From: Owenia fusiformis
Taxonomy: Eukaryota
DNA: 64,000 nucleotides
Reading direction: 5' to 3'
Assembly: GCA_903813345.2 (NCBI GenBank)
Contig: CAIIXF020000001.1
Coordinates: 10,416,001-10,480,000 of the forward strand
In this document: positions 16,098-44,131 of the stretch, piece after piece
Layout of the letters: every line of letters begins with the position of its first letter
How positions within the stretch are numbered: position 1 is the first letter of the stretch
Program-made: the position numbers and the translations under genes
The notes under the pieces: model-generated
Databases searched by the model: none
Seen by the model: only the letters and a program-made list of their open reading frames with translations
Told to the model about the DNA's origin: nothing

Positions 16098-16597
16098 NNN
16101 NNNNNNNNNNNNNNNNNNNNNNNNNNNNNNNNNNNNNNNNNNNNNNNNNNNNNNNNNNNNNNNNNNNNNNNNNNNNNNNNNNNNNNNNNNNNNNNNNNNN
16201 NNNNNNNNNNNNNNNNNNNNNNNNNNNNNNNNNNNNNNNNNNNNNNNNNNNNNNNNNNNNNNNNNNNNNNNNNNNNNNNNNNNNNNNNNNNNNNNNNNNN
16301 NNNNNNNNNNNNNNNNNNNNNNNNNNNNNNNNNNNNNNNNNNNNNNNNNNNNNNNNNNNNNNNNNNNNNNNNNNNNNNNNNNNNNNNNNNNNNNNNNNNN
16401 NNNNNNNNNNNNNNNNNNNNNNNNNNNNNNNNNNNNNNNNNNNNNNNNNNNNNNNNNNNNNNNNNNNNNNNNNNNNNNNNNNNNNNNNNNNNNNNNNNNN
16501 NNNNNNNNNNNNNNNNNNNNNNNNNNNNNNNNNNNNNNNNNNNNNNNNNNNNNNNNNNNNNNNNNNNNNNNNNNNNNNNNNNNNNNNNNNNNNNNNN
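16098..16597. other. Assembly gap (500 N)
   Basis: Exactly 500 N, probably a placeholder length. Confidence 1.
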
Positions 16598-39897: not shown

Positions 39898-40528
39898 GTA
39901 ATTTGGTACCACAGAGCTGTCCTCAAAAGTGCTCATACATTTTCAATTCATTTTCAGTCTTTCTTAATTATCTGCTCTAAATATACTTAAAAGGAAAACC
40001 TCACTTTATATCACTTCTTTAAGATTTCAATACTTGTATTGTGAAATTAATTGAATATTTTTTTGTAGCTTATGGTGCTATACCATGTTGCATCTTTTGT
40101 ATTAAATACATTATGTAAAATAATTAACTTAAAATATGACAAAGGCAATACCCTTTTCATTCGTTTGACTTCGCTTCTCAGAGTAGAGCTTCGTCTTCAC
40201 TCTTTCAGTTTTCCTGGGCTGTCACAGGCACCAATCTTTGGGGCGGGGCTGCTAAACTGTAATATAGTCTATACTAGGCAGAGTGTAGTTCACAACTAGA
40301 TTCTGTGTGCAGGGTACAAAGGCACATGTCCTAGTTCTAGATAATATGATTGCCCTCCCCTTTGTTGGACCATTTGTCTTACCTACAGTATATACAGTAG
40401 CTGCATATAAAGTTCATATTTCTCCAATTTTCTAGGGAATGTGATTGCCTCCTGTTGTTTTAAGACCCCTAGATTTACCCCCAATATATCCAATAACTGG
40501 TTATATACATATTTCTCATATCCTCTAG

Positions 40529-40680
40529 GTAATGTGTTTGCTCCTCACCTCTGTGACCCTAAACTTCTTAAGATACCTCCTGATGAGAGTGGGATTGCAT
40601 TCTATGTAGACCTACATGGACATGCATCTAAGAGGGGCTGCTTCATTTATGGCAACCACTTCACTGATGAGGAATCTCAG
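40529..40680 (+). CDS. AGBL5: CCP5 coding exon 7 (third zinc ligand)
   Basis: [18 protein letters not shown]. Confidence 0.95.
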
Positions 40681-40938
40681 GTCAGTACTAAGAAACAAAC
40701 CATGTTTTTTAGAATCAATGTATTTGAAAATATATGTTGTACCTGTAAAGTTTTGAAGTCAAGATTTGAAGAAACTCTAAATGACCACCACTTTTGTGAC
40801 AATTATGGATTGATTTATCAACAATTTGTTTGTTATTGGAAGAATGTACAATTGTGGATACAATAATAATATTTCCACGTTATTTTTCCACTAGGATGCC
40901 AGTAAAGTAAACCCGACATTGTAAAAACATAACTGATG

Positions 40939-41139
40939 TATTACATACCTTTATTCCCATGGCTACGTTGTTTGTTGGATCAATGATGTCACACATCTGT
41001 GTGCTAGTAGAATTTGATGGAAATGAAACATGACATCATGATATTGCCACGGTTATTAAAGAAAACGGGCAATATTGGTGGATATAGCCCATTTACTTTC
41101 TCATTGACTTCCATACAAATGCTCCCTAGGTATGTAATA
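40939..41139. mobile_element. MITE abutting the acceptor of CCP5 exon 8A
   Basis: TATTACATACCT...AGGTATGTAATA; homologous to 35607-35843. Confidence 0.7.
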
Positions 41140-41155
41140 ATGTTTCACATTGCAG

Positions 41156-41325
41156 ATTGAAAACATGTTATATCCAAAGTTGATCTCCACAAATACAGCA
41201 CACTTTGATTTCACTGGCTGTAACTTCACAGAGAAGAACATGTATACAAAAGATCGCAAATCTGGTACATCAAAAGAAGGAAGTGGGAGGGTCGGCATGT
41301 ACAAATCTATAGGCATTTTACATAG
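41156..41325 (+). CDS. AGBL5: CCP5 exon 8A (mutually exclusive candidate)
   Basis: tgcag|[56 protein letters not shown]|gtttgt; 170 nt, phase 0-2. Confidence 0.9.
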
Positions 41326-41374
41326 GTTTGTAGCATTGCATATTGTTTATGTTTTACATTTTGTGTACTTCTAG

Positions 41375-41544
41375 GTTGAAAATATGCTCTACCCCAAGCT
41401 TGTGTCTATCAATACTGCACATTTTGATTTTACCGGGTCTCTGTTCAGTCAAAAAAATATGTACACAAAGGATAAGAGGGATGGGTTATCCAAGGAAGGG
41501 AGTGGGAGAGTTGGGATGTACAAATCAATAGGAATTTTACACAG
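41375..41544 (+). CDS. AGBL5: CCP5 exon 8B (mutually exclusive candidate)
   Basis: ctag|[56 protein letters not shown]|gtacag; 170 nt, phase 0-2. Confidence 0.9.
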
Positions 41545-41979
41545 GTACAGAACCAGTAAATGACATCGATAGTTAATTTTATTTATGGTAACTAACTATG
41601 ATATCTTATTTAGTGTTTGCCCTTTAAGAATTAAGACTATTGTATTACACTTTAACATTTAACTGTTTCTGAGTTTGTTGTTTAAATGCAGGTTTTGATT
41701 TTTTATTGTATAAATACAGGCTTTATTTCCTTGTATGAATCCAAGCTTCAATTCATTGTAAGAAGTATAAGTTCAGACTTTGATTTATCCTAAAATTGCA
41801 CTTGAAGTCATACAGCTAAACTTGTAAAGTGGAACACCTCTAGAAAAGGAACACCTCTGTTAGTGGAAAACTTTTCAGAGTCCCAAGACCAACTGACTTA
41901 TATGAGCCTCCAAAGTAGAACATTTTATAGAGGTACCAAAGGTGTTCCACAAAGACAGGTTTTACTGTACTTCATTGAA

Positions 41980-43558
41980 GTTACACACATTATTGTACAA
42001 TTTCTTGCAGTACTATAGATGTTCTGTTCCAGTTGCACATTATTTTACAATTTCTTACAGTACTATAGATATTCTGTTCCAGTTGCACATTATTTTACAA
42101 TTTCTTACAGTACTATAGATGTTCTGTTCCAGTTGCACATTATTTTACAATTTCTTACAGTACTATAGATATTCTGTTCCAGTTGCACATTATTTTACAA
42201 TTTCTTACAGTACTATAGATGTTCTGTTCCAGTTGCACATTATTGTACAATTTCTTACAGTACTATAGATGATCTGTTCCAGTTGCACGTTATTGTACAA
42301 TTTCTTACAGTACTATAGATATTCTGTTCCAGTTGCACATTATTTTACAATTTCTTACAGTACTAAAGATGTTCTGTTCCAGTTGCACATTATTTTACAA
42401 TTTCTTACAGTACTATAGATATTCTGTTCCGGTTGCACATTATTTTACAATTTCTTACAGTACTATAGATGTTCTGTTCCAGTTGCACATTATTTTACAA
42501 TTTCTTACAGTACTATAGATATTCTGTTCCAGTTGCACATTATTTTACAATTTCTTACAGTACTATAGATGTTCTGTTCCAGTTGCACATTATTGTACAA
42601 TTTCTTACAGTACTATAGATGTTCTGTTCCAGTTGCACGTTATTTTACAATTTCTTACAGTACTATAGATGTTCTGTTCCAGTTGCACATTATTGTACAA
42701 TTTCTTACAGTACTATAGATGATCTGTTCCAGTTGCACGTTATTGTACAATTTCTTACAGTACTATAGATGTTCTGTTCCAGTTGCACGTTATTTTACAA
42801 TTTCTTACAGTACTATAGATGTTCTGTTCCAGTTGCACGTTATTGTACAATTTCTTACAGTACTATAGATGTTCTGTTCCAGTTGCACATTATTTTACAA
42901 TTTCTTACAGTACTATAGATGTTCTGTTCCAGTTGCACGTTATTGTACAATTTCTTACAGTACTATAGATGTTCTGTTCCAGTTGCACATTATTGTACAA
43001 TTTCTTACAGTACTATAGATGTTCTGTTCCAGTTGCACATTATTTTACAATTTCTTACAGTACTATAGATGTTCTGTTCCAGTTGCACGTTATTGTACAA
43101 TTTCTTACAGTACTATAGATGTTCTGTTCCAGTTGCACATTATTGTACAATTTCTTACAGTACTATAGATGTTCTGTATCAGTTGCACATTATTGTACAA
43201 TTTCTTACAGTACTATAGATGTTCTGTTCCAGTTGCACATTATTTTACAATTTCTTACAGTACTATAGATGTTCTGTTCCAGTTGCACATTATTGTACAA
43301 TTTCTTACAGTACTATAGATGTTCTGTTCCAGTTGCACATTATTGTACAATTTCTTACAGTACTATAGATGTTCTGTTCCAGTTGCACATTATTGTACAA
43401 TTTCTTACAGTACTATAAATGTTCTGTTCCAGTTGCACATTATTGTACAATTTCTTACAGTGCTATAGATGTTCTGTTCCAGTTGCACATTATTGCACAA
43501 TTTCTTACAGTACTATAGATGTTCTGTTCCAGTTGCACATAATTGTACAATTTTTACA
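41980..43558. repeat. 50-bp tandem array, about 31 copies
   Basis: (TTTCTTACAGTACTATAGATGTTCTGTTCCAGTTGCACATTATTKTACAA)n, highly homogeneous. Confidence 0.98.
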
Positions 43559-43669: not shown

Positions 43670-43805
43670 TTACACACTAGAGTGCAATTACAACACAGGA
43701 CGTATGGTGAATTCTGTGCCACCTGCTTATGGGGATGATGGGAGAGCAACACCTCCTCCAGTGGCTGGATTCCCTCCTAAATATACAATAGAACATTATG
43801 AAGAG
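43670..43805 (+). CDS. AGBL5: CCP5 exon 9 (catalytic Glu)
   Basis: [15 protein letters not shown]...DGRATPPP...PKYT...EE. Confidence 0.95.
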
Positions 43806-44131
43806 GTAAATTTACAATAGAGCATTGTGAAGATGCAAATATACAATAGAACATTATGAAGAGGTAAATTAACAATAGAGCATTTTGAAGATGCAAATAT
43901 ACAATGAAGGGATAAGTTTACAAGAGAGCATTGTGAAGATCCAAATATACAATAGAACAATATGAAGAAATAATTTACAATAGAGCATTGTGAAGATGCA
44001 ACAGATTATTATAAAGAGGCAAATATACTGAAGATTCCCTCCTAAATGTATTATAGAAAATGTATCATAATCTGAATGCTTTTTATTACTAAATAGTCAT
44101 ATACAGTATATAGACATTCATTCACTGCTAG

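Follow-up and report, generated by a model that had tools for sequence, protein, structure and literature searches.

Cytosolic carboxypeptidase 5 (CCP5, encoded by AGBL5) removes branch-point glutamates from tubulin, and how the surroundings of its active site set its specificity is an active question. The gene of the annelid Owenia fusiformis lies in a stretch of 64,000 nucleotides of contig CAIIXF020000001.1 (referred to below as the window), an AT-rich animal sequence with a GC content of 0.24-0.38 per 2 kb that is interrupted by an assembly gap of 500 N at 16098-16597. Within the catalytic domain of this gene, two homologous exons of identical length, here named 8A and 8B, stand next to each other, of which 8A is the annotated version and 8B is unannotated. 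This arrangement raises the question whether 8B is a working alternative to 8A, so that one gene specifies two deglutamylases, or a copy with some lesser role. The exon pair is real, and it probably functions as a mutually exclusive pair, judging from the sequence features, the selection record and the RNA reads considered in the following sections.

Identity of the gene

Searching with the peptide of exon 8A gave 439 of 441 candidates at E <= 0.001 (the best 120 listed), the top match being P0001, a 1100-aa Owenia fusiformis protein named cytosolic carboxypeptidase-like protein 5, with 100% identity. By tblastn of P0001, the gene was placed on the forward strand at 36270-56275 in about 18 coding exon blocks, the borders of which may be off by a few bases, save for those of exons 7, 8A, 8B and 9. 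The Owenia protein carries the precomputed domains PF00246 and PF18027 and matched the crystal and cryo-EM chains of human CCP5 (8V3M and others) with an E-value of 1.7e-238, the exon-8 segment falling without gaps onto human residues 456-511. A Pfam scan of four single-exon peptides returned 0 families for each because the single-exon pieces are too short, and the family was called from the matches to P0001 and human CCP5 instead. In an alignment of 30 sequences, H250, E253, H538, H540 and E620 are invariant; HxxE and a later His are taken as the zinc ligands, and the last of these residues as the catalytic Glu, on the pattern of the M14 family and PMC3940198.

Anatomy of the exon pair

Exon 7 (40528-40680, plus strand) contains the third zinc ligand motif DLHGH and ends at the donor CAG/GTCAGT, and exon 9 (43670-43805, plus strand) follows the acceptor TTTTAG and supplies the last base of a Ser codon and then YTLE, which includes the catalytic Glu. 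Between them lie exon 8A (41156-41325) and exon 8B (41375-41544), both on the plus strand, each of 170 nt and open in frame 0, separated by an intron of 49 nt (41326-41374). The two copies agree in length and in phase (0 to 2) and have canonical AG/GT borders, with the acceptors TTGCAG (8A) and TTCTAG (8B) and the donors GTTTGT (8A) and GTACAG (8B). Joined to the two spare bases of either copy, exon 9 reads S-YTLECNYN, and DLHGH and YTLE stay in frame whichever copy sits between them.

The encoded peptides are identical at 45 of 56 residues (80%), with 25 of these 45 residues specified by differing codons, and the nucleotide identity is 121/170 (71%). Eight of the 11 replacements are located within exon residues 21-38. 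Outside the exons, the flanks of the two copies are no more alike than random sequence (23/60 before, 14/49 after).

Repeats are found farther along, in the intron after exon 8B and around exon 9. A minisatellite with a 50-nt unit (31.5 copies, 96% matches) occupies 41986-43558, 3' of exon 8B, and was excluded from the stretch used for read mapping. Another tandem repeat of 58 nt (43779-44001, 4 copies, 81% matches) begins inside exon 9, where 43779-43811, comprising the final 27 nt of the exon and GTAAAT, has an exact copy at 43837-43869; this copy places another, identical donor 58 nt farther on, the use of which would be out of frame.

Reading frames and mutual exclusion

The messages 7+8A+9 and 7+8B+9 both remain open on into exon 9. 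Joining both copies (7+8A+8B+9) leads to a TAG stop at 41529-41531 with nine more exons downstream, and omission of both (7+9) leads to a TGA stop at 43736-43738 in exon 9. Of the 17 introns in the gene, the one separating 8A from 8B is much the shortest, the remaining 16 spanning 228-4605 nt, and its only two yUnAy branch-point candidates are located at distances of 23 and 30 nt from its donor.

An earlier note on this DNA, made from the letters alone, had recognized the gene as CCP5/AGBL5, sited the pair between DLHGH and YTLE, and given its coordinates, phase, AG/GT borders and 49-nt spacing, the counts of 45/56 identical residues and 25/45 differing codons, and the clustering of 8 of 11 substitutions in one segment; the gene assignment was borne out by the protein and structure matches, and the remainder was reproduced by direct reading and recomputation. 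Its further statements, that inclusion of both or neither copy shifts the frame and that the 49-nt spacer favours a steric reading, agree with the two stops found and with the rank of this intron among the 17.

From these features we infer that 8B is spliced in alone, and the way in which exclusion would be enforced. In the CCP5 gene of the Owenia lineage, exon 8 would have been duplicated in tandem long ago, giving a mutually exclusive pair, the productive mRNA carrying 8A or 8B, one per message, and we regard this as the likely reading of the locus; Owenia fusiformis would then probably make two versions of the CCP5 enzyme. Exclusion would act at two levels. As 170 is not a multiple of three, messages with both copies or neither would meet an early stop, and with many exon junctions 3' of that stop they would be expected to be removed by nonsense-mediated decay (NMD). 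The other level would probably be steric hindrance within the 49-nt intron, in which the branch-point candidates stand 23-30 nt from the donor, a distance that, according to work on tropomyosin, is reportedly too tight for the spliceosome. Short introns and NMD are both described as enforcers of two-exon clusters of mutually exclusive exons (MXEs) in the part of PMC6071210 that deals with such clusters.

Two other devices were considered and rejected. Competing RNA structure gave no signal, as folds of 41100-41345 and 41100-41600 were no stabler than shuffled sequences (z -0.65 and +0.44, respectively). Incompatibility of U2 and U12 splice sites was dismissed for want of any donor of the ATATCC/GTATCC type, the U12-type donor consensus.

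Several short elements around 8A may be recorded alongside. Among 25 inverted-repeat pairs in 1310 nt, one flanks 8A (41118-41137 with 41318-41337, 75% complementary over 20 nt); this pairing, with the 8A donor region as a partner, could loop out 8A, and the folds show no signal of it. Seventeen nucleotides upstream of the 8A acceptor, in 41118-41139, an acceptor-like motif touches a donor-like motif (CCCTAG/GTATGT). Just past the exon 7 donor, a 21-nt stretch (40701-40721) is 71% complementary to 41147-41167, which comprises the 8A acceptor and the start of the exon; the exon-side arm reaches a TTGAAAA...ATG run common to 8A and 8B and could in principle dock on either.

Age of the duplication and selection on both copies

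Differences between 8A and 8B number 9, 8 and 32 of 56 at codon positions 1, 2 and 3, respectively (position 3 against positions 1 and 2, Fisher p = 5.6e-8). By the method of Nei and Gojobori, pS is 0.877 (29.8 of 34.0 synonymous sites), too high to be corrected, and pN is 0.143 (19.2 of 134.0 sites). Under a model in which one copy has been neutral since the duplication, the divergence of 32/56 at position 3 predicts differences at about 38% of positions 1 and 2; 17 of 112 were observed (binomial p = 6.5e-8), and of 20000 neutral simulations, with a mean identity of 18, 0 were still open with at least 45/56 identity. Neutrality of one copy over this time is ruled out on both counts. Both copies have been kept by purifying selection and the duplication is old, since the synonymous sites are saturated and the flanks unalike with the coding sense preserved.

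The copies were further compared with a consensus of 71 distinct versions of the segment, derived from the 229 of 264 non-Owenia proteins that aligned over its full length without gaps, the other 35 being excluded. Exon 8B matches this consensus at 45/56 residues and 8A at 44/56, which indicates that the two are about equally derived and that neither looks decayed. Moreover, the conserved frame of 8B can be read only in messages without 8A, so the selection signal is itself evidence for 8B-only messages. A recent loss of 8B use may be compatible with the substitution counts.

Differences between the encoded segments

Across the 71 close versions, four residues of the exon are near-invariant, namely Cys22 (71/71), Asn23 (70/71), Glu26 (70/71) and Asp36 (70/71). 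Exon 8B has GSLFSQ for GCNFTE, with Ser-Leu at residues 22-23 and Gln at 26, and keeps the canonical KDKRDGL with Lys-Arg-Asp at 34-36. Exon 8A keeps the canonical GCNFTE (Cys-Asn-Glu) and has KDRKSGT where relatives have KDKRDG, with Arg-Lys-Ser at 34-36 and Thr at 38. Each predicted isoform combines one canonical and one altered patch, and these two patches hold 8 of the 11 changes. At several changed codons, two or three bases have been replaced (AAC/CTG, CGC/AAG), indicating that the changes are not recent. The loss of the near-invariant Cys and Asn from 8B could also mean loosened constraint.

A wider though biased sample of 60 distinct versions came from 80 metagenome loci that had been retrieved with patterns derived from 8B. 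At the spot in question, 52 of the 60 carry Cys-Asn, the remaining 8 showing Cys-Val, Cys-Leu, Cys-Ile, Ser-Leu, Ser-Val, Ser-Cys or Ser-Asn. Because each of these eight is the sole version found, Ser-Leu is a rare but natural state; states with Ser or Cys followed by Leu, Val or Ile are known from this metagenome sample as the sole version in other, more distant eukaryotic CCP5-like genes. One locus (L012, 1586-1744) has Ser-Leu at this spot (SASLFSEK), as in exon 8B, and a protein (P0179) has Cys-Leu there and DLHAH in place of DLHGH. At exon residues 33-38, DRKEGL is seen in loci L013-L038 and others (18 distinct versions) and is nearer to DRKSGT of 8A than to the usual DKRDG; if these metagenome versions are from annelids, the Arg-Lys state could predate Owenia.

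The catalytic Glu follows the two patches at a distance of 23 to 39 residues. According to section 3.4 of PMC3940198, the stretch before this Glu carries, in M14 enzymes, the mobile Tyr248 loop, which caps the S1' pocket, as well as residues lining that pocket. When the Protein Data Bank was searched by phmmer at E up to 10, the exon-8 segment gave no alignment to bacterial CCP structures by which an equivalent of the Tyr248 loop might be placed. An AlphaFold2 model of P0001 built with 30 sequences has a mean pLDDT of 51, with values below 50 over residues 582-610, which contain both variable patches, and is unreliable in that part. It is reasonable to infer from their position that the variable loops would be proximal to the substrate. 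A difference between the isoforms in substrate handling is speculative, and we are doubtful that the switch yields two CCP5 enzymes that would treat their substrates differently, one with canonical GCNF and the other with Ser-Leu and canonical KRDG. If true, it would be a natural loop swap exposing two specificity classes of a tubulin-code eraser.

Distribution among species

On a FastTree phylogeny with 73 tips, 8A and 8B are sisters with a support of 0.81, and they have in common several states that are rare among the 71 versions: Gly47 (1/71), Met48 (6/71), Ser51 (6/71) and Leu55 (7/71). The Mytilus segment is identical to 8A at 47/56 and to 8B at 46/56 residues, compared with 45/56 between 8A and 8B. 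Among the listed isoforms (99 sequences, three of them without the segment), Mytilus, Dreissena, Ruditapes, Ptychodera, Lingula, Branchiostoma, Strongylocentrotus, Liolophura and Antedon each have one exon version; two Mytilus versions one residue apart belong to a cluster of several Mytilus species. A second exon copy was found at 0 of the 80 metagenome loci, 69 of which extend at least 300 nt on either side, and the same procedure returned two copies in the Owenia control. When the 80 loci were searched against themselves at a permissive threshold (E up to 5), 305 short matches came up, the best two at E 0.010 (L004, 6638-6712) and 0.012 (L007), which were treated as noise.

The limits of the exon recur in short open reading frames (P0167-P0178) and metagenome contigs (L001-L038) of other animals. 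The reading frames begin with Gln, where the CAG acceptor is read through, and extend to GIIH-Arg, and AG and GT stand exactly at the extrapolated borders in 24 of the 80 metagenome loci. The shared limits imply that the 170-nt exon is an old unit.

The pair seems to have arisen by an old duplication on the Owenia branch and, as far as the sequences compared suggest, to be specific to this lineage; one annelid represents it so far. The earlier note had read the locus as an old duplication with both copies under purifying selection and had proposed a synonymous/non-synonymous comparison of the copies and an exon tree; the values of pS and pN, the rejection of a neutral copy and the sister grouping of 8A and 8B uphold that reading. 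An ancient pair, which the note had named as a possibility, or a widely shared one is not supported, given the single version in each of the nine other taxa, the 80 metagenome loci without a second copy and the same sister grouping.

Annotation and RNA reads

All four annotated Owenia isoforms (4/4) contain 8A. Exon 8B is present in no protein among the matches listed, which comprise 225 of 232 candidates of 99-2000 aa (the best 120 listed) and 13 of 13 candidates of 30-98 aa, the best protein match to 8B among those listed having 82% identity.

Three raw-read RNA runs labelled Owenia fusiformis (X12, X13 and X14) were mapped, each contributing about 1.7-1.9 billion letters. In X12, the depth was 1.2-2x on exon 7, 1.8, 2, 2 and 0.24x in the bins of 8A, and 0.04 and 0.88x in the last two bins of 8B. 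In X14, it was 1.2-4x on exon 7, 2.0 and 1.88x in the first two bins of 8A, and 0.66, 0.72, 0.36 and 0.88x in the four bins of 8B, and in X13 zero reads fell on exons 7, 8A and 8B. The non-repeat intron bins 40706-40905 and 41556-41755 had a depth of 0 in all three runs, as did the inter-exon bin 41306-41355 save for the last bases of 8A in X12. In the reads of X12 and X14 on both copies, the first mate maps to the minus strand, the same as on exon 7. At a depth of at most 2x on 8A and 8B, no splice junction reached the listing threshold of 3 reads in the three runs. These data, a handful of reads, fit the presence of 8B in spliced RNA at a level comparable to that of 8A.

Other intron pieces, at 40906-41155 and 41806-41955, were covered at very high depth in all runs (RNA up to about 80x, summed contig depth of the public run X1 up to 24000), and loose ends and back-joints abound in their mappings. 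Both pieces probably belong to a high-copy interspersed repeat that is transcribed and has inverted repeats within it at 41829-41950.

Alternative explanations

The most serious competitor of a mutually exclusive pair is that 8A is effectively constitutive and 8B a relic or very rarely used exon, long functional and now silent or on its way out. The annotation leans this way, with 8A in 4 of 4 isoforms and 8B in 0 and absent from database proteins among the listed matches, as does the loss from 8B of a Cys-Asn pair kept in 70-71 of 71 close homologue versions. However, 8B is open, has kept both splice sites and matches the consensus as well as 8A does (45 vs 44 of 56), it received RNA reads in 2 of 3 runs in which the unique intron bins were empty, and states like its Ser-Leu are natural, being the sole version in 8 of 60 metagenome versions. 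Weighed together, these points leave a silent or fading 8B an unlikely explanation. Alternatively, 8B might be a poison exon which, when joined with 8A, introduces a stop codon and lowers the output of CCP5, no second protein being made. The TAG at 41529-41531, with nine more exons beyond it, is what such a device would use, but a poison exon needs no coding constraint, and 8B is conserved in a frame that is read only when 8A is left out; the 49-nt intron also makes joint inclusion less likely. We consider this role quite improbable.

An error of assembly, or two alleles collapsed side by side, would produce a tandem layout as well, and here it is hardly credible. The copies are just 71% identical in DNA and their flanks unalike, and a contig of 583 nt from a public run (record 5 of X1) covers 41094-41658 unbroken and with zero base differences, so the layout is not peculiar to the present assembly, with the reservation that the run may be from the same material. 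The reads of X1 behave as DNA, giving an unspliced contig of flat depth, and carry no information on splicing. A mutually exclusive pair is the reading that we prefer to each of these explanations.

Significance and comparison with known systems

Productive use of 8B would correct the Owenia annotation, from which one class of CCP5 isoforms is absent. A maintained exon pair marks 11 residues varied by nature with the rest of the catalytic domain fixed, and the 8A and 8B isoforms are ready-made constructs for comparison. The locus is also a further case in which exclusivity appears to be enforced jointly by reading frame and intron length.

The splicing device itself is well known and of textbook standing; the CCP5 instance is new and unannotated. 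A literature search, which covered zebrafish and Owenia fusiformis splicing, found no paper describing a mutually exclusive pair in AGBL5/CCP5, and the passages of PMC10953240 consulted mention mouse splice variants with no MXEs among them. Human CCP5 (8V3M-8V3S, 8V4K-8V4M) is the orthologous enzyme and has GCNFSE and RDRRDG in this segment. Humans and every other species examined show a single exon version, in contrast to Owenia with GSLFSQ in 8B and DRKSGT in 8A.

Among the MXEs treated in the sections of PMC6071210 consulted, the exons IIIb and IIIc of FGFR2 are enforced by NMD and exon 17 of Dscam by steric hindrance. The Owenia pair resembles the tandem-duplicated pairs described there, its two homologous exons standing side by side and agreeing in length and phase, with a length that is not a multiple of 3 and a very short intron between them. 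Unlike those pairs, it is unannotated, read from sequence in one annelid, and without sign of competing RNA structures. The exons 7a/7b of Ate1 and 4a/4b of OGDH are described as MXE pairs that likewise alter a functional region of an enzyme and switch its properties; those two have been the subject of experiments and are conserved among vertebrates, whereas the CCP5 pair comes from a single annelid genome.
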